This document shows, piece by piece, positions 3,175 to 47,073 of a stretch of 48,048 nt of DNA. The position numbers were made by a program, and so were the translations under genes. The stretch's first letter is position 1. Each line of letters opens with the position of its first letter. The notes beneath the pieces were generated by a model, which worked only from the letters and a program-made list of their open reading frames with translations, searched no databases and was not told the DNA's origin. The DNA lies in assembly GCA_964557745.1 (NCBI GenBank), contig CAZLBQ010000002.1, positions 1-48,048 of the forward strand, written 5' to 3'. The DNA comes from an uncultured Anaerolineales bacterium (GTDB lineage: Bacteria; Chloroflexota; Anaerolineae; Epilineales; JAHCIE01).

Positions 3175-3618
3175 TTAGGGAAGCCGTGGCGGCAGCAGCC
3201 GCGTCAGCAGCGGCGGGCCGAGGATGAGCAGGCCGACGGCGACGGCTGCCATCGCCAGCAGGAAGACCGCGCCCGCCGCCGCGTCCTTAGCGACCTTCGC
3301 CAGCGGGTGGTAGCTCGGTGAGGCCAGATCAACCAGCGCCTCAACGGCGGTGTTCATGACCTCGGCAGCCAGGACGACGCCCATCGTTAGCGCCAGGATG
3401 GCCCAGTCGCGGGCGGGCACGCCAACCCACAGGCCGACGACGATGACCGCCGCTGAGATGCCCAGGTGAATCTTGAAGTTGCGCTGGGTGCGCGCCGCGT
3501 GGACGATGCCCTGCCACGCCCAATCAAACGACTTGAGCAAGCCAGGCGCCGGATGCCGACTGAAGTCGGCGCTACGGGGCGCAGGCCGACTGGAGTTGGC
3601 GCTACCGGGCGCCTTCAT
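3175..3618 (-). CDS. dgkA: diacylglycerol kinase / undecaprenol kinase family membrane protein
   Basis: 147 aa. F.WA..G...A...Q.NF+IH, E.MNTA.E..VDL and AKD.AAGAV motifs, 3 TM helices. The ATGA start overlaps the ybeY stop. Confidence 0.85.
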   Translation of the reverse strand: MKAPGSANSSRPAPRSADFSRHPAPGLLKSFDWAWQGIVHAARTQRNFKIHLGISAAVIVVGLWVGVPARDWAILALTMGVVLAAEVMNTAVEALVDLASPSYHPLAKVAKDAAAGAVFLLAMAAVAVGLLILGPPLLTRLLPPRLP

Positions 3619-4085
3619 CCTTCATCCTTGAGATGAAGGGCGGCCTTGCCCAGCGCCTGCTCGCCCAGCGCCACCATCTCCGCCCAGCCGTCTTCACTCT
3701 CGTCGTCGTAGCCCGACAGGTGGAGGACGCCGTGAATGACAAGCCAGGCCAGTTCGTCGTCGGTAGCCCAGCCGGCCTGCGCGGCCTGCGCCACAGCGCG
3801 CGGGTAGGAGACCACGACGTCGCCCAGGAGGCGCGGTATGTCCGGCAGGGGCGGCGTGTCGTCGTCGCCCTGGCCGAAGGAGAGGACATCCGTCGGCTTG
3901 TCCTGGCCGCGATACGTGCGGTTCAACTCCTGGAGCGTCTCGTCGCCGGTGATGAGGATGGACACCTCGACGGGGTCGACCGCGCCGACGACGGCCAGCG
4001 TCCGCTGCGCGGCCGCCTCGACCGCTGCGACGTCCACGGCCTCAGCGTACGCGTCGTCGACGCTCACGTCAATCACGTGGGGCAT
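3615..4085 (-). CDS. ybeY: rRNA maturation RNase YbeY
   Basis: 156 aa. HGVLHLSGYD metal-binding motif and TDVLSF motif. Confidence 0.93.
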   Translation of the reverse strand: MPHVIDVSVDDAYAEAVDVAAVEAAAQRTLAVVGAVDPVEVSILITGDETLQELNRTYRGQDKPTDVLSFGQGDDDTPPLPDIPRLLGDVVVSYPRAVAQAAQAGWATDDELAWLVIHGVLHLSGYDDESEDGWAEMVALGEQALGKAALHLKDEG

Positions 4086-4088
4086 AGG

Positions 4089-6287
4089 CTATCGATTGCG
4101 CTCCGTAAAGCGGATGACGCGGGCGCGCCGGGCGGGACGAGTGTCGGGGACGGCAGCCGGCATGGTCAGCGGCACGTCGTTCTCTACCGGCGGCGCGGGC
4201 TGGACCGTCGGGTACTCGACACGCGGGTGGTAGACGCCCTGCAGGACGTTCTCGAACGCGTCGCGCACCCGGACAATCTCGCGCCGTGTCAGGGGGCTGT
4301 CGTCGAGTTGTCCCTCGTTGAGCCGCTCGTCAATGACCCGCCCGATGATGGCGCTCACGTCCTGGGTTGTCGCGGGCCGCTTGGCGCGGACCGCTGCCTC
4401 GCAACAGTCGGCCAGCATGAGAATGCCGGCCTCGCGGGTATGCGGGCGCGGGCCGGGATAGCGGAATTGGCTCTCGTCCACCGCGCCGCCCGCGAGTTCC
4501 TGCGCTCGGGCATAGAAGAAGCGGACCAGGGTTGTGCCGTGGTGCTGGGCAATGTGCTCGAGCAGGGCGCGCGGCAGGCGAGCCTCGCGGCCCATAGCGA
4601 GACCCTCGCTCACATGGCCGATGATGAGCTGGGCGCTCGTCTCCGGCGGCAGGCTGTCGTGGGGGTTGGCGCCCGCCAACTGGTTCTCGATGAACATGTG
4701 CGGGTTGTTGAGCTTGCCGATGTCGTGGTAGTAGGCCCCGACGCGGCACAGCAGGGCGTCGGCGCCGATGCGGTGCGCGGCCTCCTCAGCCATGTTGCTG
4801 ACGATGAGACTGTGGTGATAGGTACCCGGGGCGCGCAGTTGCAGGTCACGCAGCAGGGGCTGGTTGGGACGGGCCAGTTCCATCAGGCGCAGCGTGGTCG
4901 TCAGGTCGAAGAGGTTGCCCAGCAGGTAGTAGCCTAGCGTCGTCAGCGAGACGGCCAGGATGCCGCTGCCGATGGCGGCCAGCCCCAACTCGATCAAGCC
5001 CTGGACGTCGTACTCGGCTCGTATCAGGCGGAACGAGGCGATGCAGATGAGTTGAGCCAGGATGGCATACACACCCGCCCAGGCAAAGGACATCAGGCGC
5101 TCGGTGCGCCACAAGGTCAGCGAGGCGACGATGCCGCCGAGCAGGATGTAGACCAGCAGGTCGAGGGATCGCCCGGCCAGGAAGCTGACCATGAGCGCCA
5201 GCAGGAGCGTGGTGGACAGGGCGAAGCGCGGTTCCAGCAGGACGGTCAGCAGCATGGCTGCCGCCGCGCCGGGGAAGAGGTAGGGCAGAACGGTGCGGCC
5301 CGGCACCATGAGCTTGGCCAGGAGGACGAAGCTGAGGACCACCAGGACCAGCAGCAAGGCGCGCCGCCCGTCGACCCAGAAGTCGGGGTTGCGGTAGACG
5401 ACGTACAGGCCCAGGGTGAAGACCGTCAGGCCGACGAGCAAGAGCGTGCCGACGACGCTGCGCCAGTCGAGGCTGTCCTGGAGCAGTTCGAGTTTCTCCA
5501 GGGCTTCCAGGTGACGCGGCTGGACGATGTCGCCCGCCCGCAGGATGGTTTCGCCGCGCTCGATAGTGCGCGTCGTGGTGGGGACGTTAGCGGCGGCCTG
5601 GCGGCGCGCCAGTTGGGTGGCCGCCTCGTCGAGCAAGCTGTTGGGCTGGATGAAGCGGCGGGCGTACTCGGCGACGGCGGCGGCCTCGGCGTCGGACAGG
5701 TTGAGGCTGATGTAGTTGGACAGCGAGCGCCGCGCCTCGTCCAGGTTGTCCTCGCGGATGGGCTGGCGCATGGCCTGTTCGACGACGCGCAGCGTCTCGC
5801 CCTTGATGCGCTGCCAGCCCTCTTCCGACGCGCGCAGCGTCAGGTCGAGCGTCTCCGTGGGCAGGTCACGCAATTCGGGCACGCCGCGCAGCATGGCGCG
5901 CTTCTCGTCGAGGGTCGCGCCCGGGTTGCCGCGCACCCACTCGGCGGTCTCAAAGACCTCGGACGCGCGCTTGACGGCCTGGCGCGTGATGCGCAGGTCG
6001 GGCGGCAGGTAGATGGACTGGACGCGCCGAATCGCCTCGGCCCGCTCCTGGGCGGTGAGGACGGCGCTCTCGTACTGAATCTTGCGCGGAGCGCGGATGT
6101 CGGTCGGGCTGACGTCGCCTTCCTTGAGCTGGACGGTGCGGGCGGTCGGGAAGACGAGAATGGCGGTCAGCGCGACGGACAGCGCCAGGGCGAGCAGGAT
6201 GGCGCTCGCGGCGCGCCAACGCGGGTTGGTAGGGATAGCAAAGGGCAGGCCTCTCACGATGGCGCCTGCCCCTTCGCGGATGGACAT
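4089..6287 (-). CDS. 7TM-receptor / HD (HDIG) domain phosphohydrolase, PgpH/YqfF-like
   Basis: Polytopic central region followed by HHSL.VSN..E.AA..IGA...L.RVGAYYHDIGK. I prefer the ATG at 6287 (GGAG 9 nt upstream). The ORF-track start at 6311 is a TTG lying inside the repeat element. Confidence 0.88.
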   Translation of the reverse strand: MSIREGAGAIVRGLPFAIPTNPRWRAASAILLALALSVALTAILVFPTARTVQLKEGDVSPTDIRAPRKIQYESAVLTAQERAEAIRRVQSIYLPPDLRITRQAVKRASEVFETAEWVRGNPGATLDEKRAMLRGVPELRDLPTETLDLTLRASEEGWQRIKGETLRVVEQAMRQPIREDNLDEARRSLSNYISLNLSDAEAAAVAEYARRFIQPNSLLDEAATQLARRQAAANVPTTTRTIERGETILRAGDIVQPRHLEALEKLELLQDSLDWRSVVGTLLLVGLTVFTLGLYVVYRNPDFWVDGRRALLLVLVVLSFVLLAKLMVPGRTVLPYLFPGAAAAMLLTVLLEPRFALSTTLLLALMVSFLAGRSLDLLVYILLGGIVASLTLWRTERLMSFAWAGVYAILAQLICIASFRLIRAEYDVQGLIELGLAAIGSGILAVSLTTLGYYLLGNLFDLTTTLRLMELARPNQPLLRDLQLRAPGTYHHSLIVSNMAEEAAHRIGADALLCRVGAYYHDIGKLNNPHMFIENQLAGANPHDSLPPETSAQLIIGHVSEGLAMGREARLPRALLEHIAQHHGTTLVRFFYARAQELAGGAVDESQFRYPGPRPHTREAGILMLADCCEAAVRAKRPATTQDVSAIIGRVIDERLNEGQLDDSPLTRREIVRVRDAFENVLQGVYHPRVEYPTVQPAPPVENDVPLTMPAAVPDTRPARRARVIRFTERNR

Positions 6288-6300
6288 GAGTACTCCATCG

Positions 6301-6403
6301 ACAAGTATCAAGTGTCAAGTAACAAGTTTCAAGTATGAAGGAAGCAGTTCCAGCCTCTGGACTTGAAACTTGAGACTTCTCACTTGAGACTTGACACTTG
6401 TAG
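6301..6403. repeat. heptanucleotide-repeat hairpin, CAAGT/ACTTG family (copy A)
   Basis: CAAGT at 6302, 6309, 6316, 6323, 6330. ACTTG at 6361, 6368, 6382, 6389, 6396 (ACTTC at 6375). Perfect 12-bp stem CAAGTTTCAAGT (6323-6334) / ACTTGAAACTTG (6361-6372). Confidence 0.9.
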
Positions 6404-6922
6404 TAATGCGCGGACGACGTCGCTGACGAGCTTGCCGTCGGCCTGGCCCTTGACGCGCGGCATGAGCACGCGCATGACCTGGCCTGCCTGCGACGGGGCC
6501 GTCGCGCCGGTTTCCTGGATGGCCTGGCGCGCCAGCGCCTCCACCTGCTCGCGGCTCATCTGCTGGGGCAGGTAGGCTTCGAGGATGGCGAGTTCCGCTT
6601 CCTCGCGCTGGACCAGGTCGGCGCGGCCAGCCTTGGTAAAGTCGGCGATGGACTCGCGGCGCTGCTTGACCTCGCGCTGGACCACGGCAATGCTCTCGTC
6701 GTCGGTCAGGGCCAGCGCGGCCTCGTCCAGCTTGACCTCAGCCTCGCCGAGTTGCCCACCGCGTCGCTTGGCCTCGGCGTCGATGGCGGCCTTGCGCTTG
6801 GCGTCGGCGGCCTTCTGGAGCGCCGCCCGCAGCCCGCGCAGCGTCGTCTTGCGTATCTCGTCGCCCTCGCGCAGCGCGGCCTTCACGTCCACCGCTACGC
6901 GTTCGTTGAGTGACTCAGGCAT
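6380..6922 (-). CDS. yqeY: GatB/YqeY domain-containing protein
   Basis: 180 aa. REEAELAILEAYLPQQMS.E.VE and GQVM+.LMP.VKG.ADGK.V...V+ are typical YqeY. The last codons (QVSSLK*) are encoded by repeat copy A. Confidence 0.85.
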   Translation of the reverse strand: MPESLNERVAVDVKAALREGDEIRKTTLRGLRAALQKAADAKRKAAIDAEAKRRGGQLGEAEVKLDEAALALTDDESIAVVQREVKQRRESIADFTKAGRADLVQREEAELAILEAYLPQQMSREQVEALARQAIQETGATAPSQAGQVMRVLMPRVKGQADGKLVSDVVRALLQVSSLK

Positions 6923-6931
6923 GGCTCAGGT

Positions 6932-7055
6932 ACCAAGTAACAAGTGACAAGTTTCAAGTCGTAAGTGGCAAGTCACAAGTGGCCGATGACAAGTTTCAAG
7001 CCAACGACACCAAGTTCTTACTTGAAACTTGATCCTTGTCACTTGACACTTGTCG
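6932..7055. repeat. heptanucleotide-repeat hairpin, CAAGT/ACTTG family (copy B)
   Basis: Twelve nnCAAGT-type units in unbroken 7-nt phase from 6934 to 7011 (three degenerate). Then ACTTG-type units at 7020, 7027, 7034, 7041, 7048. Confidence 0.9.
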
Positions 7056-7084
7056 CAGGAATTATAGCCCGCCGCCCCCGCCCG

Positions 7085-7423
7085 TCAAATTGGGGGCCAG
7101 CCCATTTGCCGGCCGCCCAGGACGTGGAGGTGGAGGTGGAAGACGTGCTGGCCGCCTTGCCGCCCGATGTTGGTCACGACGCGGTAGCCGCCCTGGACGC
7201 CGGCGATCTCGGCCACCCGCCGACACGCCAGCACAAGCCGTGCCGCCAGGTCGGCGTCCGCCTCGGCCAGGGCGTCCAGGTTCTCGACGTGGCGGTTGGG
7301 GATGACGAGGATGTGCGTCGGCGCGACGGGGTGGATGTCGTGGAAGGCGGTGACGTGGTCGTCCTGGAAGACGACGCGGGCGGGCAGTTCCCCCGCCACA
7401 ATCTGGCAGAAGATACAGGCCAT
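7085..7423 (-). CDS. HIT family (histidine triad) protein
   Basis: MACIFCQIV..E.PA..V..D and HLHLHVLGG. AGGAGG lies 5 nt upstream of the ATG at 7423; the ORF-track start at 7444 has no RBS. Confidence 0.92.
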   Translation of the reverse strand: MACIFCQIVAGELPARVVFQDDHVTAFHDIHPVAPTHILVIPNRHVENLDALAEADADLAARLVLACRRVAEIAGVQGGYRVVTNIGRQGGQHVFHLHLHVLGGRQMGWPPI

Positions 7424-7446
7424 GAAACCTCCTGGGCTACACACGC

Positions 7447-7475
7447 TTGCCCGGCGTCGCAGCGTGGCTTATACT
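7447..7475 (+). promoter_or_regulatory. candidate sigma-70 promoter for the ArsA-like gene
   Basis: TTGCCC (7447-7452), 17-nt spacer, TATACT (7470-7475), about 45 nt upstream of the ATG at 7522. Confidence 0.5.
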
Positions 7476-7495
7476 TGCAGGGTACGCCATTCCAA
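7468..7495 (-). promoter_or_regulatory. candidate divergent promoter for the HIT gene
   Basis: Minus strand: TTGGAA (7495-7490), 16-nt spacer, TATAAG (7473-7468). Its -10 box overlaps the plus-strand -10 box. Confidence 0.4.
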
Positions 7496-7521
7496 CGACA
7501 AAGGAAACGCCAGCCAACACT

Positions 7522-8709
7522 ATGGCACGCATTATTCTGTACACCGGCAAGGGCGGGGTCGGCAAGACCAGCGTCTCGGCAGCGACCGCCGTCCGCTGCG
7601 CCGACCTCGGCTACCGCACCATCGTCCTCAGCACCGACGCCGCCCACTCGCTGGGCGACTCCTTCGACCTGCCCCTCGGCCCAGAGCCGACGCCCATCGC
7701 AGCCAACCTGTGGGGCCAGGAGATTGACGTCCTGCACCAGATGGACGAGTACTGGGGCACGGTGCAGAATTACCTGTCGGGCCTGCTGGTGTGGCGCGGG
7801 GCCGACAGCCTCGTCGCCCAGGAGGCTAGCGTCCTACCGGGCATGGAGGAACTGGCGAGCCTGCTCCAGATCACCCACCTCCACGAGGGCGGCCAGTACG
7901 ACGTCATCATCGTGGACTGCGCGCCGACGGGCGAGACGCTCAAGTTCCTGTCGTTCCCGGAGGCGGCGCGCTGGTACCTGGCGCAGATTTTCCCCTTCCA
8001 GCGCAAGATGGCCCAGATCGCCGGGCCGATCATCCGCGCCATGACCGACATGCCCACGCCCGATGATAACGTATTCGAGTCGATTAAGCAACTGCTGTTG
8101 CAACTGGACCGCATGAACGAGCTGCTAAGCGACCCGGCGCGGTCGTCGGTGCGCATCGTCCTCAACCCGGAAAAGATGGTGGTCAAGGAGGCGCAGCGCA
8201 CCTTCACCTACCTCAGCCTCTACGGCTTCCCCACCGACGCCATTATCTCCAACCGCATCCTGCCCGACATCATCAACGACGCCTACCTGGAGGGCTGGAA
8301 GGACATGCAGGAGCGCTACGGCAAGCTGGTGGACCAGGCGTTTAGCCCGCTGCCCATCTTCAAGGCGCCGTTGTTCCAACAGGAGATGGTGGGCTTGGAC
8401 ATGCTGCGCCAGATGGCCGGCGCCATCTACGGCGAGAGCGACCCGACACGGGTGCTGTACCAGGGGCAGACGCAGACGATTGCGCCGGTCAACGGCGGCT
8501 ACGACCTGCGGCTGCGCCTGCCGCTGGTGGACCGCTCCCAGGTGGACCTGGGCCGCTTTGGCGATGAACTGGTCATCGACGTGGGCAACTTCCGCCGCAA
8601 CCTCATCCTGCCGCGCTCGCTGGCCGGGCTGGACGTGGCGCGGGCCGGCTTCGACGACGACACGCTGGTCGTCCACTTCGCCCAGCCCGCCGAGCCAGCC
8701 GAGGCGTAG
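7522..8709 (+). CDS. ArsA/Get3-family ATPase with C-terminal HSP20-like domain
   Basis: MARIILYTGKGGVGKTSVSAATA (deviant Walker A), LSTDAAHSL, DCAPTGETL+FL. The C-terminal beta-rich segment (DLRLRLP...LVIDVGNFRRNLILP...DDTLVVHF) resembles the ArsA_HSP20 domain. Start at 7522 rather than 7447. Confidence 0.9.
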   Translation: MARIILYTGKGGVGKTSVSAATAVRCADLGYRTIVLSTDAAHSLGDSFDLPLGPEPTPIAANLWGQEIDVLHQMDEYWGTVQNYLSGLLVWRGADSLVAQEASVLPGMEELASLLQITHLHEGGQYDVIIVDCAPTGETLKFLSFPEAARWYLAQIFPFQRKMAQIAGPIIRAMTDMPTPDDNVFESIKQLLLQLDRMNELLSDPARSSVRIVLNPEKMVVKEAQRTFTYLSLYGFPTDAIISNRILPDIINDAYLEGWKDMQERYGKLVDQAFSPLPIFKAPLFQQEMVGLDMLRQMAGAIYGESDPTRVLYQGQTQTIAPVNGGYDLRLRLPLVDRSQVDLGRFGDELVIDVGNFRRNLILPRSLAGLDVARAGFDDDTLVVHFAQPAEPAEA

Positions 8710-11313: not shown

Positions 11314-11370
11314 GCCTTCTGGCCTTCTGCCCCCTGGCCCCTGGCCCCTGTTCCCTACCCCTCCCCCACC
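11314..11370. repeat. C-rich (G-rich on coding strand) degenerate 7-8-nt tandem tract across the galT stop
   Basis: GCCTTCTG x2, then CCCCCTG, GCCCCTG, GCCCCTG, TTCCCTA, CCCCTCC. C-runs at 11330-34, 11338-41, 11345-48, 11353-55, 11358-61, 11363-67. Confidence 0.8.
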
Positions 11371-17369: not shown

Positions 17370-18068
17370 ATGACCCTCAATCCGGCTCCGACCGTCGTCG
17401 GCACTCTGCCGGCCCAACTGCATCCCCTCCTCGACGAGGTCGAAGGTATCACCGGCCTCCCGGAGACTGTCTTGAACCCGCCGCCCCTGCTCATCGTCAT
17501 ATCCGGTCCGTCCGGAGTCGGCAAGGATACGGTGCTCCAGCGGCTCCAGGAGCGCCAAGTGCCGTTCCACTTCGTCGTCACCGCGACGAGCCGCCCTATG
17601 CGGCCCGGCGAGGTCCACGGCCGCGACTACTTCTTTGTCTCCGAGGACGAATTCCGTCAGATGATCCAGGCCGGCGAGTTGTTGGAGCACGCGCTGGTCT
17701 ACAATCATTACAAAGGCATTCCCAAACAGCAGGTTCGCGACGCCTTCGCCAGCGGCAAGGACGTCATGCTGCGCATTGACGTTCAGGGCGCGGCGACGAT
17801 TCGCCGCCTGGTGCCGGAGGCGGTCCTCATCTTCCTGGCAGCCGGCAGCCTGGCCGAACTCATGGAGCGCCTCATCGCCCGCAAGACCGAGACGGTGGAC
17901 GACCTGGCGAAACGGATGGCGACCGCCCGCGCCGAGATGGACCAGCTCGACCTGTTCGATTATGTCGTCATCAACCGCGACGAAGAGCTAGACGCGACGG
18001 TCGACCAGATCATTGCCATCGTCCACGCCGAGCACGCCCGCGTCCACCCCCGCGAATGCCGCCTCTGA
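17370..18068 (+). CDS. gmk: guanylate kinase
   Basis: ISGPSGVGKDT P-loop, TTR.MRPGEV.G.DY.FV, and Y.G.YGT-like block. ATG at 17370 preceded by GGAG; the track start at 17199 adds 57 unsupported codons. Confidence 0.93.
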   Translation: MTLNPAPTVVGTLPAQLHPLLDEVEGITGLPETVLNPPPLLIVISGPSGVGKDTVLQRLQERQVPFHFVVTATSRPMRPGEVHGRDYFFVSEDEFRQMIQAGELLEHALVYNHYKGIPKQQVRDAFASGKDVMLRIDVQGAATIRRLVPEAVLIFLAAGSLAELMERLIARKTETVDDLAKRMATARAEMDQLDLFDYVVINRDEELDATVDQIIAIVHAEHARVHPRECRL

Positions 18069-18181
18069 GACGTGAGACGTGAAACGTAAAACGCGAAGAC
18101 CAGCCACCGCTATTACGTTTCACGCTTCACTCATCACGCGAGACGTGTCACGCCTCACGGTTCACGCCTCACGTTTGACGC
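18067..18181. repeat. heptanucleotide-repeat hairpin, ACGT-word family
   Basis: Left arm: GAGACGT GAGACGT GAAACGT AAAACGC GAAGACC (18067-18101). Right arm: ten ACGnnnn units in exact phase (18115-18181). The first unit starts inside the gmk TGA (18066-68). Confidence 0.9.
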
Positions 18182-18185
18182 TGCT

Positions 18186-21100
18186 ATGTATGCCGAGATC
18201 GCCGTCAACGTCAGTCTAGGTCCGTGGACCGGCGGCCAGGGCGCGCCGCCCCCGGCCTACCACTACCGCGTCCCGACGGCGCTCGCGGCCGCCATCGCGC
18301 CCGGCCAGCTCGTCCGTGTCCCCTTTGGCGCGCGCCCGGCCCAGGGCATCGTCCTGAGCCTGACCGAGACTGCTCCCATCCTCCCCAACGGCGCGAAGAT
18401 TCGCCCCCTCGACGCCATCGCCGACCCTCGCCCCGTCCTGGCGCCCGCCCACCTCGCCCTGGCGCGCTGGATCGCTGACACGACCCTCAGTCCCCTGGCC
18501 GACGTCGTCTGGGCCATGGTCCCCTCCGGCCTAGAGGAGAAGGCGCACGTGGTGGTGGAGTTGGTGGCAGGGGAGAAGGCGGAAGGCGGAAGGCGAAAGG
18601 CGAAAGGCAGCGCGCCGCTCGCAGCAGGCAGCACGCAGGAGGTGGATGAAGAGGCGACCGAAGGCGAGCGCCGACCCACGACCCACGACCCACGACCGCC
18701 GACCGACGACGAGTTACCTGCCACTGACCACCAACCAGCGACCACTGGCGACACACCAACCACCGACCACCAACGACCGACCACCGACGACCGACCACTG
18801 CGTCTGGGGCCGGTGCAGCAGGCGATTGTCAACGCGCTGACGGAGAGCGGGCCGCTGCGGCTGGACGACCTGACCGCGCGGGTGGGCGGCAAACCGACCA
18901 GCGCCCTGAACAGCCTGGTCGAGCGGGGTCTAGTGCGGCGGACGTGGGCGCTCGACCCGCCGACCGTTCGGCCGCGCACCGTGCGCGTCGTGGTCCTGAC
19001 GGCGACGCCTAGCGAGGTCGAGGCGGCGCGCCCAACCCTGGGCCGCGATACCCCTGAAGCGCGCGCCCTGGCCTGGCTCGCGGCCTGCGGCGACCCCCTG
19101 CCCTCGCTCGCAGCCCTGCAACAAGCCAGCGGCGCGTCGGCGGGCGCGATCCAGCGGCTGGCCGCCGAGGGTGTCATCGGCGTGACGGGCAAGCGGACGC
19201 TTCTGGCCCTGCGCGTGAGCCGCGTCGAGGCCGCGGCATCGCCCCACAAGGAGGGGAAGGTCGGGCCAGCCCTTGGCCTCCTCCTCGCCAGCCCCGTCCC
19301 CCTCGACCTGGCCGACCTCAAGGCGCAGGGGGTGACGGCCCCGCATGTCAAGCGCCTGGTCGAGGCGGGCCTCGTCCAGCGCATCGAGGAGGAGCCGAGC
19401 GTCTACCTGACCATCCCGCTAGACCACATCCCCGACGCCCTGGTCCGGCTGCGTAAGGCGGACGGCCAGGCCCATGCCCTGGCCCACCTGCTGGCCCACG
19501 GACCTGAGATGGATGCCGCGACCCTGGCGCAGGCGAGCCAGGCCAGCCTGGAGGACTTGCGCGCCCTCGAAGCGCGGGGGCTGCTCCGTATCGAGGAGCG
19601 CCCGGCCTGGCGCGACCCGCTGGCCGGCCAGAGCTTCGCCCTCGCCATCCCGCCCCACCTGACCGACGACCAGGCGCGCGCCTGGGCAGCCATCGAGGCG
19701 GCCTTTGACACTCCTGGGGAGAGGCGGGCGTTCCTCCTCCACGGCGTCACCGGCTCCGGCAAGACCGAACTCTACCTGCGCGGCGTCGCGGCGGCCCTGG
19801 CGCGCGGCCAGCAGGCGCTCATCCTCGTGCCCGAGATCGCGCTGACGCCACAGACCGTCCGCCGCTTCGCCGCTCGCTTCCCCGGCCGCGTCACCGTCTG
19901 GCACTCGAAGCTGACGCCCGGCCAGCGCTATGACACCTGGCAGCGCGTCCGCGCCGGCGAGATTGACGTCGTCATCGGCTCGCGCTCGGCCCTCTTCGCG
20001 CCCCTGTCCCGCCTGGGGCTGATTGTCGTGGACGAGGAGCATGAGCCGTCGTACAAGCAGGATGCCACGCCACGCTACCACGCCCGCGAGGGCGCGCTGC
20101 GCCTGGGCCGCGAGACAGGGGCGGTTGTCCTGCTGGGTAGCGCCACGCCCGACGTCGAGACCTATGCCCGCGCCGAGCAGGGCGAGTTGACCCTGCTGAC
20201 CCTACCGCGCCGCGTGGTCGGGCATCGGGCGATGGCTGACCGCCAGGCGACGATGGATCACGGACGATGGACGGTGGGGGAGGGCGTGGAAAAGGCGGGC
20301 GTCATGCATGCTGGCCCCACCTACGGTGACCTGCCGCCGGTGCAGGTGGTCGACTTGCGGGCCGAGCTGCGGGCGGGCAACACGAGTGTTTTCAGCCGCG
20401 CCCTGCAGGCGGCGCTGGCCGAGACACTGGCGCGGCGCGAGCAGGCCATCCTGTTCCTCAACCGGCGGGGGGCGGCGACATTTGTCATGTGCCGCGACTG
20501 CGGCCACGTCCTGGCCTGCCCCCGCTGCTCGACGCCGCTGACCTACCACACGGCGACGGGCGCGCTGGTCTGCCACCACTGCGGCCAGCGCCAGACTCAG
20601 CCGCGCGCCTGCCCAAAGTGCGGGAGCGAGCGGGTCAAGCACTTTGGCGCGGGGACGCAGCGCGTCGAGGAGGCCCTGCTGGCCCTGTTCCCCCAGGCGC
20701 GCGTCCTGCGCTGGGATAGCGATACCACCGGCGGCCGCACCGCCCACGCCGAGTTCCTGGACGCCTTTCTGCAGGGCGACGCCGACGTGTTGGTCGGGAC
20801 GCAGATGATCGCCAAGGGCCTGGACTTGCCGTTGGTGACGCTGGTCGGCGTGGTCAGCGCTGACACCGGGCTGCACCTGCCCGACTTCCGGGCCGCCGAG
20901 CGCACCTTCCAGCTGCTGACCCAGGTGGCGGGGCGGGCGGCGCGCGGTCCCCTCGGCGGGCGCGTCATCTTCCAGACCTACACGCCCGAGCATTATGCCA
21001 TTCAGGCAGCGGCCCGTCACGACTACCTGTCATTCTACGCGACCGAGATGGAGTTTCGCCGCGCGGCGGCCTACCCGCCCTACACGCGGCTGGCGCGCCT

Positions 21101-21368
21101 GCTGTATCTCGACCCCACGTGGGAGCGGGCGCGCGCCGAGAGCGAGACCCTCGCGCGGCGGCTGACCGACTACATCCGCCGCCAGGGTCTCACCAACACC
21201 AGCCTCATTGGCCCGGCCCCGGCCTACTTTAGCCGCGAGCGCGGTGAGTACCGCTGGCATATCGTGGTGCGCAGCCCCGACCCGGCCGCGCTGCTGCGCG
21301 CCTTCTTCCAGACGGCCCGCCCGCCCTATGGCTGGCGCATCGACATGGACCCGGTGAGCCTGCTATGA
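18186..21368 (+). CDS. priA: primosomal protein N' (replication restart helicase PriA), unusually long
   Basis: Walker A LLHGVTGSGKTE, DEEHE box, Cys-rich zinc region (CRDCG...CPRCS...CHHCG...CPKCGS), C-terminal domain. About 290 extra residues lie between the N-terminal DNA-binding domain and the helicase core. Confidence 0.93.
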   Translation: MYAEIAVNVSLGPWTGGQGAPPPAYHYRVPTALAAAIAPGQLVRVPFGARPAQGIVLSLTETAPILPNGAKIRPLDAIADPRPVLAPAHLALARWIADTTLSPLADVVWAMVPSGLEEKAHVVVELVAGEKAEGGRRKAKGSAPLAAGSTQEVDEEATEGERRPTTHDPRPPTDDELPATDHQPATTGDTPTTDHQRPTTDDRPLRLGPVQQAIVNALTESGPLRLDDLTARVGGKPTSALNSLVERGLVRRTWALDPPTVRPRTVRVVVLTATPSEVEAARPTLGRDTPEARALAWLAACGDPLPSLAALQQASGASAGAIQRLAAEGVIGVTGKRTLLALRVSRVEAAASPHKEGKVGPALGLLLASPVPLDLADLKAQGVTAPHVKRLVEAGLVQRIEEEPSVYLTIPLDHIPDALVRLRKADGQAHALAHLLAHGPEMDAATLAQASQASLEDLRALEARGLLRIEERPAWRDPLAGQSFALAIPPHLTDDQARAWAAIEAAFDTPGERRAFLLHGVTGSGKTELYLRGVAAALARGQQALILVPEIALTPQTVRRFAARFPGRVTVWHSKLTPGQRYDTWQRVRAGEIDVVIGSRSALFAPLSRLGLIVVDEEHEPSYKQDATPRYHAREGALRLGRETGAVVLLGSATPDVETYARAEQGELTLLTLPRRVVGHRAMADRQATMDHGRWTVGEGVEKAGVMHAGPTYGDLPPVQVVDLRAELRAGNTSVFSRALQAALAETLARREQAILFLNRRGAATFVMCRDCGHVLACPRCSTPLTYHTATGALVCHHCGQRQTQPRACPKCGSERVKHFGAGTQRVEEALLALFPQARVLRWDSDTTGGRTAHAEFLDAFLQGDADVLVGTQMIAKGLDLPLVTLVGVVSADTGLHLPDFRAAERTFQLLTQVAGRAARGPLGGRVIFQTYTPEHYAIQAAARHDYLSFYATEMEFRRAAAYPPYTRLARLLYLDPTWERARAESETLARRLTDYIRRQGLTNTSLIGPAPAYFSRERGEYRWHIVVRSPDPAALLRAFFQTARPPYGWRIDMDPVSLL
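18672..18797 (+). repeat. 18 tandem heptanucleotide units translated in frame within priA
   Basis: CGACCCA x3, CGACCGC, CGACCGA, CGACGAG, TTACCTG, CCACTGA, CCACCAA ... CCGACCA, in unbroken 7-nt phase. A second tract of 5 units (GGAGAAG GCGGAAG x2 GCGAAAG x2) lies at 18572-18606. Confidence 0.9.
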
Positions 21369-36329: not shown

Positions 36330-37532
<1,203 letters not shown>

Positions 37533-37612
37533 CGATTGACGATGGACGACGGACGATGGACGATAGGGGAGGCTCTCATGCTCCGTCTATTGTCCCTCGT
37601 CCCTCGTCCCCG
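37533..37612. repeat. heptanucleotide-repeat hairpin, GACGA/TCGTC word
   Basis: CGATTGA CGATGGA CGACGGA CGATGGA CGATAGG, loop, TCCGTCT ATTGTCC CTCGTCC CTCGTCC. Starts on the nucleotide after the tuf TAA. Confidence 0.9.
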
Positions 37613-41152: not shown

Positions 41153-41231
41153 CAGCAGTGCTGAGTGGCCAGTCCTGAGTGCTGAGGAAGATCAACACTC
41201 AGCACTCGACACTCGGTACTCAGGACTAGAC
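41153..41231. repeat. heptanucleotide-repeat hairpin, TGAGT/ACTCA word
   Basis: CAGCAGT GCTGAGT GGCCAGT CCTGAGT GCTGAGG, loop, ACTCAGC ACTCGAC ACTCGGT ACTCAGG ACTAGAC. Starts on the nucleotide after the rplV TAA. Confidence 0.9.
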
Positions 41232-41900: not shown

Positions 41901-41974
41901 CTTGGAATTAGGAAGGAAGAATTAGGAAGTAAGAAGCCATTCATCATTCCTAATTCATCATTCTTAATTCGAAA
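41901..41974. repeat. heptanucleotide-repeat hairpin, AGGAA/TTCCT word (AT-rich)
   Basis: CTTGGAA TTAGGAA GGAAGAA TTAGGAA GTAAGAA, loop, TTCATCA TTCCTAA TTCATCA TTCTTAA TTCGAAA. Starts 2 nt after the rpsC TAG. Confidence 0.9.
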
Positions 41975-43340: not shown

Positions 43341-43524
43341 CGCGAAGGAGTGGGGGCAATCGGGTGATTGCCCAGGCGAGCCGTAGGGGCATCAGCCTAC
43401 GGTCGGAGGTTAACAGCGGCATAGTGACACAGTGGTCGAGCGGCCAGCGCCGCCCGATGGGGCGACGCGAGCCGCCGGGTGGCCGACGCCGTGGAGGCGT
43501 CGGAACGCCGGAAGCTGGGCGGGC

Positions 43525-43612
43525 GGCAAGTGTCAAGTGTCAAGTAGCAAGTTTCAAGTAGGAAATCCGAGAGGCCGAACTTGAAACTTGAGACTTGAAA
43601 CTTGTCAGTTGG
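43525..43612. repeat. heptanucleotide-repeat hairpin, CAAGT/ACTTG family (copy C)
   Basis: CAAGT at 43527, 43534, 43541, 43548, 43555. ACTTG at 43579, 43586, 43593, 43600 (AGTTG at 43607). Same 12-bp stem CAAGTTTCAAGT/ACTTGAAACTTG as copies A and B. Confidence 0.9.
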
Positions 43613-43685
43613 GAGTTCGCCGCGTTGGACCCCTCTGTCACTGGGCCGCGCATGGTCTCCTGCGGGAGAAGAGTGAAGGTCAAAG

Positions 43686-45718: not shown

Positions 45719-45782
45719 ATTGACGACCGACGACCGACGACCGCCCAATGGTTCGGTGGTCAGCGGTCGGTCGTCGGCGGTC
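45718..45782. repeat. heptanucleotide-repeat hairpin, GACCGAC/GGTCGTC word
   Basis: GATTGAC GACCGAC GACCGAC GACCGCC, loop, GGTGGTC AGCGGTC GGTCGTC GGCGGTC. The first unit starts on the G of the rplF TAG. Confidence 0.9.
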
Positions 45783-45842: not shown

Positions 45843-46211
45843 ATGGCTAAGACATCCGAGCGCCGGCTCTCGCGCCAGCGCCGTCACGAGCGCGTGCGCC
45901 GCAAGGTACAAGGCACCCCGGAGCGCCCGCGCCTGAATGTATATCGCAGCTTGACCCACATCTACGCCCAGGTGATCGACGACACGCGCGGCCACACCCT
46001 GGCCGCCGCCTCGACCCTCGACGGGTCGTTGAAGGCGCAGTTGGGTGAGATGAACAAGACCGAGGAAGCGAAGGCCGTCGGGCGGCTGGTTGCCGAGCGC
46101 GCCAAGGCGGCGGGGATTGATAAGGTGGTCTTTGACCGCGGTGGGTATGTGTATCACGGTCGCGTCAAGGCGCTGGCCGATGCCGCCCGCGAGGCCGGTC
46201 TGGACTTCTAA
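45843..46211 (+). CDS. rplR: 50S ribosomal protein L18
   Basis: RR..R+R.K+.GT.ERPRL.V+[18 protein letters not shown]+L ... [25 protein letters not shown]. Confidence 0.98.
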
Positions 46212-46296
46212 CGCAATCCGTGACATAAGCGAGTCGGGCGGGGCGACGCGAGTCGCACGGCCGCCCGGCGTGAGCACACAGAAGGGTAACTCAGCT

Positions 46297-47073
46297 ATGG
46301 ATGAGATGACACGTAGACCGGCTGGCGGTTCCGGCGGTGGTCCGGCCGGCGGTGGCCGCGGTCGGAGCGGCGGTGGTGGCGGCGGCCAGGGTGGTCGTGG
46401 TCGCGGTCCAGGTGGCCCGGGCGGCGGTGGCCGTGGTCCGGGCGGGCCGGGCGGTGGTCGTGGCCCTGGTGGTCAGGGCGGTCCTGGCGGCCAGGGGGGC
46501 CGTGGTCCGCGCGGCCAGGGCGGCGATCGCGGGGATCGGCCGCGTGGCGACCGCCGCGAGCCGCAAGAGGAGCGCGAGCAGCTCGATGAGCGCGTGATCG
46601 ACATCGCCCGCACGGCGAAGGTCATCAAGGGCGGTCGGCGCTTCGCCTTCCGCGTGGTCGTGGTCGTCGGCGACAACCAGGGCCGCGTTGGCCTGGGCAT
46701 CGGCAAGGCGCGTGAAGTTCCCGAGGCGATCCGCAAGGGCATCGAGCGCGCCAAGAAGAACATGATCACCGTGCCGATGATGGGGACGACCATCCCCCAC
46801 GAGGTCACGACGCGCTACAGCGCCGCCAAGGTCATGCTCAAGCCCGCTACGCCGGGCACGGGCGTCATCGCGGGCGGCAGCGTCCGCGCCGTCGTCGAGG
46901 CCGTGGGCATCAAGGACATTCTGACCAAGTCCATGGGCAGCAGCAACGTGCTCAACGTCGTGCGCGCCACGATGCAGGGCCTGAGCGAGCTAAAGGACTA
47001 CAACGAAGAGGCGCGCCGGCGCGGTAAGACGCCGGCCCAGGTGCAGCCAGTGTGGAGCAAGACCAATGGCTAA
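46297..47073 (+). CDS. rpsE: 30S ribosomal protein S5 with long RGG-rich N-terminal extension
   Basis: Core [42 protein letters not shown]+KG... preceded in frame by about 90 residues of G/R/P repeats. I chose the ATG at 46297; the track ORF start at 46090 overlaps rplR. Confidence 0.9.

Follow-up and report, generated by a model that had tools for sequence, protein, structure and literature searches.

The 48-kb window of DNA analysed here (contig CAZLBQ010000002.1, positions 1 to 48,048) derives from a member of the Anaerolineae (Chloroflexota) with 66% GC, an assignment made through YqeY homologues. On its minus strand the gene yqeY, which encodes a GatB/YqeY-domain protein of 180 amino acids (6380-6922), is bracketed by two hairpins built from tandem heptanucleotides, element A (6301-6403) and element B (6927-7054), in each of which CAAGTnn heptads face ACTTGnn heptads. 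The feature is real, non-random and fast-evolving, and it is not an artefact. The two-arm heptad architecture itself has already been described, so that the window adds a new lineage to a known, functionally unexplained kind of repeat, and A and B do not demonstrate a new mechanism. On balance, we lean towards the view that slippage produced the repeats and that, as RNA stem-loops, they protect transcript ends or take part in processing. In many bacterial genomes no long simple repeat is more over-represented than the heptanucleotide, and a single small operon carrying both a 5'-terminal and an intercistronic stem-loop offers concrete cases for deciding between the tuning of mRNA stability or processing and mere slippage debris.

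The heptanucleotide hairpins flanking yqeY

Period 7 is the only enriched repeat period in the window. When 28-nt segments were slid along the sequence and scored for self-match at periods 3 to 12 (threshold at least 22 of 28), period 7 gave 73 hits, compared with none at periods 3-6 and 8-11 and five at period 12. Tandem Repeats Finder returned period-7 arrays at 6302-6340, 6361-6400, 6934-6981 and 7020-7052, and a repeat finder recovered the same A and B arrays together with their inverted arm pairs. At least three head-to-tail 7-nt units are present at both elements, as expected of heptanucleotide simple sequence repeats (SSRs). [quoted passage not shown]

The minus-strand gene order, established by Pfam and homologue searches, is HIT (7085-7444), yqeY, a pgpH-type 7TM-HD gene (4089-6287), ybeY and dgk, and the same order is present in relatives. 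A and B are both part of the yqeY-pgpH-ybeY-dgk transcription unit. Upstream of yqeY a sigma-70-type promoter is predicted from its consensus match (TTGACG, 16 nt, TATAAT; 11 of 12 positions; 7061-7088, minus strand), and TTGACC...TATAAT is found upstream of yqeY in the relatives L002, L003, L005 and L006, the hairpin-free relatives among them keeping this promoter type. In relatives the leader that follows the promoter is ~40-65 nt long and free of heptad repeats.

In plus-strand coordinates, the CAAGT cores of A start at 6302, 6309, 6316, 6323 and 6330 and the facing ACTTG cores at 6361, 6368, 6382, 6389 and 6396; at 6375 the core is degenerate (ACTTC). On the minus-strand transcript, the 5' arm (6360-6403) thus comprises six CAAGUnn-type heptads, which include the last seven yqeY codons and the stop codon (6380-6382). 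The non-repetitive loop (6337-6359) is followed by a 3' arm of five ACUUGnn heptads (6301-6336), with 4 nt left between its end and the pgpH ribosome-binding site. Element A therefore spans the region from the last yqeY codons to that site, and the pgpH translation start (6285-6296; GGAG at 6293-6296, ATG at 6285-6287), at the foot of the hairpin, is predicted to be unpaired. As had been suspected, the TTG-extended version of the pgpH reading frame (to 6311) is a spurious product of the repeat, the real start being the ATG at 6287 preceded by GGAG. The suggestion that A supplies the YqeY C-terminus also proved right: the last six residues (QVSSLK) are heptad-encoded, and the protein ends in ...LLQVSSLK at 180 residues, whereas relatives end in ...LLSGN, SGK or EGK at 177, so that the C-terminus has been overwritten and is three residues longer.

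Element B holds 12 in-phase CAAGT-type units (6934-7011, plus-strand coordinates), eight of them with a perfect CAAGT core and four degenerate (TAAGT at 6962, 6983, CAAGC at 6997, and 7004), which face five ACTTG-type units (7020-7048). Read as minus-strand transcript, its 5' arm consists of five CAAGUnn heptads (7020-7054) beginning at about the transcription start (~7053-7054) predicted from the promoter, and its 3' arm of ~12 ACUUGnn-type heptads (6927-7015) ends ~5 nt before the yqeY ATG. With its first unit within ~1-2 nt of that predicted start, B would be effectively the entire yqeY 5' untranslated region (UTR). A 12-bp stem, CAAGTTTCAAGT/ACTTGAAACTTG, is perfect in A (6323-6334/6361-6372) and carries one mismatch in B (6990-7001), as the annotation had noted; B also contains it without mismatch at 6948-6959. 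According to the repeat finder, complementarity between the outer arms of A and B is 85% over 46 nt. The annotation had further counted eight such hairpins in the window, and the count is correct (elements A to H). The CAAGT word is, however, confined to A, B and G, which also share the inner 12-bp stem; each arm pair has its own word, and at least six different words occur among the eight elements.

Folding energies were compared with those of dinucleotide shuffles, 200 each for A and B, a control that the annotation had proposed. As minus-strand RNA, A has a predicted energy of -48.8 kcal/mol (z -6.6; its shuffles average -27.3) and B one of -51.2 kcal/mol (z -4.6); both beat all 200 of their shuffles. 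Across all eight two-arm elements z ranges from -3.3 to -8.1. The annotation had assumed that only the 5-nt cores of the heptads pair, which does not hold for the RNA strand: because many of the 2-nt spacers pair as well, partly through G-U, the predicted helices are near-continuous, with 13+8+4+6 bp in A as an example. Those of A and B measure ~30 bp on the transcribed strand. The predicted fold of B pairs its five 5' units with the outermost five of the 3' arm, and the seven inner ones make up a sub-structure.

Strain variation and previously described repeats

Exact-protein look-ups of the window's YqeY, RpsC, HIT and PgpH found none on record. Further allele copies came from a look-up of RplX, which gave the contigs L127 and L128, and from a near-identical YqeY homologue (P0001), which gave L001. 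L001 stems from the same European Nucleotide Archive sample as L127 (ERZ27282907); over 3.5 kb its identity with the window is 98.8%. The 49 differing alignment columns are distributed very unevenly: 36 fall within 73 nt of A, one within the ~130 nt of B and 12 in the remaining ~3.3 kb. Copy A has 4+6 units in L001 and 6+5 in the window, with a wholly different loop, and the L001 allele still folds (-41.8 kcal/mol, z -6.4). Unit number thus changes between near-identical strains while the hairpin is kept, which bears out the slippage of the arms in 7-nt steps that the annotation had proposed and the unit-number polymorphism that it had suggested seeking in related strains. The unit numbers of B (against L001), G (against L128) and H (against L127) are unchanged.

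The possibility that the tracts are assembly artefacts, which the annotation had raised, is ruled out by their occurrence in independent assemblies. The rplN-rplX spacer, including G, is identical in L128, an independent assembly from a separate run (SRR15734600). In L127, H is unchanged and the contig end falls inside G; positions 1-20 of L127 align at window position 43593, so that a short-read contig of the same organism ends in this hairpin. As the repeats break assemblies, heptad abundance in short-read metagenome-assembled genomes (MAGs) is probably underestimated. Broken short-read assemblies, spurious open reading frame (ORF) extensions and altered protein C-termini are practical effects of such repeats.

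Strict-sense STRR sequences, as Mazel et al. are said to have defined them in 1990, belong to heterocystous or filamentous cyanobacteria and have the words CCCCAGT, TTGGTCA and CAACAGT; Vioque reportedly described in 1997 how they lengthen helix P12 of RNase P RNA. The window elements are not STRRs in this strict sense, since both the host, an Anaerolineae member of 66% GC, and the words (CAAGTnn, GAGTGCT, GGACGAn and others) differ. They nevertheless resemble the cyanobacterial repeats in their tandem 7-nt units, in the presence of several words per genome, in their intergenic or intra-operon location and in their capacity to form hairpins (PMC2670836). In filamentous cyanobacteria, hairpin-forming 7-bp STRRs are indeed described as 'not unusual'; examples lie between hupS and hupL and upstream of hoxW, and roles in transcript stability or translational coupling have been proposed for them (PMC2670836).

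A precedent in a GC-rich, non-cyanobacterial host is offered by Xanthomonas, where Rehm et al. (2015) described pairs of convergent GGGAATC tracts on opposite strands, 70 in X. campestris pv. campestris (Xcc) and 75 in X. axonopodis pv. citri (Xac), that could form stem-loops or cruciforms (PMC4692102). The Xanthomonas heptamers vary in length between related genomes while their type is kept, and most are transcribed (PMC4692102). Shared with the window elements are the intergenic heptamer SSRs and the pairing of tracts on opposite strands (PMC4692102); A and B likewise consist of complementary-word tracts on opposite strands that are capable of forming stem-loops, as judged from their inverted pairs and predicted folds. 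However, Xanthomonas has one dominant, G-rich, quadruplex-forming word, whereas the window has many and the CAAGTnn of A and B is not G-rich. Ribosomal-operon or 5'-terminal placement is not described in the Xanthomonas study (PMC4692102), whose authors remarked that there was no detailed literature on heptanucleotide repeats. The annotation had not recognised the two-arm inverted architecture as described in a GC-rich non-cyanobacterium, and had named a match to published repeats of this architecture as the finding that would end its claim; given the Xanthomonas pairs (PMC4692102) and the hairpin STRRs (PMC2670836), the claim to novelty fails.

Further heptads are on record elsewhere. As far as the summary in PMC4679880 extends, Mrazek et al. 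(2007) found heptanucleotides to be the most abundant long SSRs in most surveyed genomes. MacGregor (2015) described TAACTGA direct repeats of Beggiatoaceae, some cyanobacteria and Bacteroidetes, which in Beggiatoaceae adjoin start codons (PMC4679880). With the window elements they have in common the 7-nt unit, an intergenic position near start or stop codons, a scattered phylogenetic distribution and a proposed slippage origin linked to a polymerase (PMC4679880). The TAACTGA repeats are, however, nearly all one-armed and built on a single word (169 direct sets against one indirect), whereas two arms are the rule in the window.

Mycobacterial interspersed repetitive units (MIRUs) are likewise tandem repeats between operon genes that overlap stop and start codons and vary in unit number between strains; their units, however, measure 46-101 bp, contain small ORFs, are not inverted and form no hairpins. 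Repetitive extragenic palindromic (REP) sequences and bacterial interspersed mosaic elements (BIMEs), intercistronic mRNA stabilisers and 5'-terminal stem-loops share with the window elements the proposed working, namely transcribed spacer palindromes that protect or segment mRNA, and abut stop codons. REP sequences, as PMC3733652 outlines them, are palindromes of 20-40 bp that share a conserved consensus and a GTAG/CGTC tag and go with a REP-associated tyrosine (RAYT) transposase. The window elements, in contrast, have no consensus beyond the locus-specific heptad and are variable in length; A, B and G have dissimilar ends and unrelated loops. Our literature searches, whose coverage was incomplete, returned no report of two-arm heptads in Anaerolineae or other Chloroflexota, Acidobacteriota or Planctomycetota, of many two-arm words per genome, of dense occupation of ribosomal-operon junctions or tRNA spacers, or of word replacement at conserved junctions.

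Possible roles and rival explanations

The explanation towards which we lean starts from replication slippage. A 7-nt word would be laid down as a tandem tract and its complementary word as a facing tract, both growing and shrinking in 7-nt steps and expanding until functional sequence such as a stop codon, a ribosome-binding site or a promoter is met. A seed palindrome would in this way be inflated on both arms, the candidate seed being the loop-proximal 12-bp stem that is perfect in A and G and also present in B. With one core word common to both arms, pairing in RNA or single-stranded DNA is possible in any register, and the hairpin survives gain or loss of units. In the RNA, B would place a stem-loop at the very 5' end of the mRNA, leaving at most 1-2 nucleotides unpaired there, and would thereby shield that end. 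A would form a stem-loop between the cistrons that stops 3' exonucleases, serves as an RNase III-type, double-strand-specific processing site, or both; the stability of yqeY could thus become independent of that of pgpH-ybeY-dgk, with the ribosome-binding site of pgpH still accessible.

Much of what was found is, however, equally expected of slippage products that have no function, and weighs to that extent against a role as stem-loops. Shuffling the order of units within arms left the folding energy nearly unchanged (z about -0.5 each, mean about -0.6, over 12 elements, only L111 being individually significant), so that there is no unit-by-unit matching of arms and stability comes from the shared core word rather than from unit-by-unit complementarity. 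This essentially negative result also leaves fine-scale homogenisation by template switching, or copying of one arm from the other, unsupported, and expansion appears to be largely independent between arms. The arms are unequal (5 against 12 units in B, 4 against ~10 in C) and one-armed tracts exist; A is a mutational hotspot between near-identical strains; tracts invade coding sequence in priA and at the yqeY C-terminus. Presence among relatives is patchy as well: L002, L003 and L005, with YqeY 63-70% identical and the same synteny, have no heptads in the 13-20 kb available from each. In a background set of 512 kb, made up of the S10-operon loci of 80 other organisms and collected in a scan for RpsC, five period-7 tracts (in two loci) were found, compared with 11 in the 48-kb window, a ~23-fold difference. 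Heptad-free relatives and a sparse background together indicate that the trait is lineage-specific and patchy. Other points limit the case for the stem-loop roles in their own right. The sense strand folds better than the antisense in seven of the eight window elements, which favours those roles, but C has a much better antisense fold, and when other genomes are added, with gene orientation roughly assigned, the tally is ~16 to 7, a weak bias. The transcription start of B is placed by the promoter consensus alone. Recurrence of hairpins at orthologous junctions is statistically uncompelling because ~40% of the window's spacers of at least 60 nt are occupied, and nothing in the proposed roles accounts for a unit length of 7 nt.

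A purely neutral origin, in which a high rate of 7-nt slippage inflates short palindromes that persist without function in unconstrained spacers, and hence fill those spacers exactly, is thus a strong rival, though we consider it the less probable account. Several points speak against it. Each of the eight two-arm elements is situated either in a spacer between co-directionally transcribed genes or in a 5' UTR, as are all nine heptad spacer loci of the window. The sense fold is the better one in seven of the eight, B is nearly invariant between strains (one change in ~130 nt), and particular operon junctions are occupied by hairpins again in other genomes, though with another word. Ribosomal-protein operons, presumably highly expressed and constrained, are densely populated; it should, however, be noted that in a raw tally from the gene map the share of occupied junctions appears to differ little between the ribosomal operons (5 of ~22) and the rest of the window (3 of ~25).

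Mobility offers another account of the CAAGT elements, since A, B and G share a word and the inner stem, the outer arms of A and B are largely complementary and certain words turn up in more than one genome (GAGTGCT in element E and in L006, CAAGT in many phyla). These elements would then be a family of miniature palindromes, similar to REP/BIME sequences or miniature inverted-repeat transposable elements, moved by a transposase such as RAYT or copied by recombination. We regard this as highly unlikely: loops are unrelated and termini unconserved, A, B and G show neither target-site duplications nor a consistent GTAG/CGTC tag, unit numbers vary freely, and the unrelated words in 48 kb number at least six. 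The wide distribution of CAAGT is moreover biased, as it was obtained by a CAAGT-seeded search. Rfam matched nothing but two tRNAs in the whole window at the gathering threshold, and at E values up to 10 it returned generic, sub-threshold, miRNA-like hairpin noise and no family between 6200 and 7150. The same abundance of words argues against one sequence-specific binding factor, and arrays of sites for a protein that reads the repeats in RNA or DNA (an antiterminator of the HutP or TRAP kind, or an iteron binder) strike us as very improbable. The conserved 5-nt core and variable 2-nt spacer of CAAGTnn do resemble a recognition unit, and in Nostoc the deletion of heptamer repeats altered recF/recO reporter expression, for which an unidentified binding partner was postulated (bioRxiv 10.1101/2022.06.06.494920). 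However, further words occur in other genomes, both orientations are always found together, words are replaced at orthologous junctions and unit numbers are not conserved. Intrinsic terminators or attenuators, which strong hairpins directly after stop codons and, in other phyla, several between convergent genes might bring to mind, are barely credible here and were rejected: none of the window elements, A and B included, is followed by a U-tract, and many sites lie inside ribosomal-protein operons or a tRNA array, where termination would be harmful. A terminator scan of 6000-7600 found nothing at A or B, whose tails read GUCGAUGGAG and GGUACCUGAGCC, and B stands at the 5' end of its own transcript.

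A broader version of the stem-loop explanation would treat two-arm heptad hairpins as a widespread, self-renewing class of transcribed spacer elements, present in Chloroflexota, Acidobacteriota, Planctomycetota, Verrucomicrobiota and some Proteobacteria. Selection would maintain them where genes meet, in ribosomal-protein operons, tRNA arrays and ordinary operons alike, as modular signals for the processing or stability of RNA. Position would persist while the word turns over, and a mechanism particular to the lineage, in replication, repair or otherwise dedicated to the task, would fix the unit at 7 nt. In this general form the proposal seems unlikely to us.

Heptad elements elsewhere in the window and in other genomes

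The remaining six two-arm elements lie on the plus strand. Element C (18062-18182; GAGACGT/ACGnnTC, of ACGTGAG type, 4 against ~10 units; z -3.3) occupies the gmk-priA junction, overlapping the gmk stop codon and abutting the priA ATG. The other five sit at junctions of ribosomal-protein genes: D (37530-37612; GGACGAn; -43.8 kcal/mol, z -5.3) begins at the tuf stop codon between tuf and rpsJ, E (41157-41228; GAGTGCT/AGCACTC; -37.6 kcal/mol, z -4.1) lies between rplV and rpsC, F (41905-41970; a 14-nt, or 2x7, unit GAATTAGGAAGGAA; z -6.2) between rpsC and rplP, G (43527-43609; CAAGTnn/ACTTGnn; z -7.9) between rplN and rplX, and H (45722-45782; GACGACC/GGTCGTC; z -4.9) between rplF and rplR. In six of the eight elements the start overlaps the upstream stop codon or lies 0-5 nt from it, and the 3' end is at most 20 nt from the next start codon in A, B, D, E and F. 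A clear, unpaired Shine-Dalgarno sequence is present there in A, D, E and F and absent from B.

Among relatives, L006 (JGI 3300012212; YqeY 71% identical) carries hairpins at yqeY/pgpH and between HIT and the yqeY promoter (464-556 and 1185-1232), both with the GAGTGCT word of element E and not CAAGT. That a single word flanks yqeY on either side, both in the window and in L006, may mean that elements close to one another are locally copied or converted; long-range pairing was also considered. Neighbouring elements share a word in ~4 of 19 pairs, for example A and B, the L006 pair and two GCCGGTA elements in L025, a tally biased by the CAAGT-seeded search. L129, whose RpsC is the nearest in the metagenome collection at 65% identity, has a GGAAGTT-type hairpin at rpsC/rplP, the junction of F; the metagenome scan for RpsC yielded no relatives at intermediate distance. 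The S10/spc operon of the Thermomicrobiales MAG L025 (DATBFX010000377.1, 1-8000) has six two-arm hairpins with at least four words, at rpsJ/rplC, rplC/rplD, rplB/rpsS, rpsC/rplP and rpsQ/rplN and downstream of rplE, along with a one-armed tract at rplN/rplX. The rpsC/rplP junction is thus occupied in the window, in L129 and in L025 by three different words.

The two-arm form is common outside cyanobacteria and Xanthomonas and populates ribosomal-protein operons and tRNA arrays. A scan for four CAAGT heptads in one genome per species found at least 120 loci in many phyla, and 21 of the 120 listed have an inverted ACTTGnnACTTG within 200 nt. Two-armed loci among the matches listed number 6 of 17 in Acidobacteriota, 5 of 14 in Chloroflexota, 2 of 4 in Planctomycetota, 2 of 5 in Verrucomicrobiota and none of 16 in Bacteroidota; the cyanobacterial CAAGT tracts among them are mostly one-armed (1 of 12 two-armed), a smaller two-armed share than in Chloroflexota or Acidobacteriota. 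One locus that the automatic rule had called two-armed, L024 (Waterburya), was unconvincing on inspection. In the long-read Gemmataceae MAG L109 (CAVZCU010000009.1, 4611-5422), a tRNA array (Asn, Gly, Gln, Lys, Phe, Pro) has three spacers that hairpins occupy exactly from end to end; their words are CCAGTCT and CAAGTTT. Hairpins also occur in the complete genome of Desulfonema magnum and in several Pyrinomonadaceae MAGs, often between convergent genes; in Pyrinomonadaceae, Desulfonema and others, 10 of 11 start at most 8 nt from a stop codon.

Not all heptad tracts in the window have two arms or lie in spacers. The galT-galK spacer holds a one-armed tract on the minus strand (11314-11367) that is G-rich on the transcript, where its GGGGCCA/GGGGGCA-type units form six G-runs; it is a possible G-quadruplex former, comparable to the Xanthomonas and Nostoc heptamers. 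Within priA (18186-21368), plus-strand period-7 tracts of GAAGGCG, CGACCCA and CCACCGA (18560-18800) encode a low-complexity stretch at about residues 125-205 of the 1060-residue protein, reading GEKAEGGRRKAKG...RRPTTHDPRPPTDDE...TTDHQRPTTDDRP, so that heptad expansion also takes place in-frame within a gene. Some 380 residues separate the 3'-DNA-binding domain of this PriA (residues 24-113) from its helicase core (from residue 494).

The rplN-rplX spacer that contains G (43341-43685) is unusually long for the spc operon at 345 nt, and it includes ordinary GC-rich hairpins at 43354-43373, 43381-43403 and 43440-43510 (z -2.1 to -2.9) with no Rfam match. In the rpsE ORF (46090-47073), S5 has an N-terminal extension of ~95 residues, rich in Gly and Arg, that is encoded at 46297-46580 by GC-rich repeats of 9-30 nt, and the S5 domains begin near residue 165 of the ORF. 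Finally, the ybeY/dgk overlap (3555-3629) contains 1.9 copies of the 30-nt unit GCCGACTGAAGTCGGCGCTACCGGGCGCAG followed by 2.6 copies of CCTTCAT.

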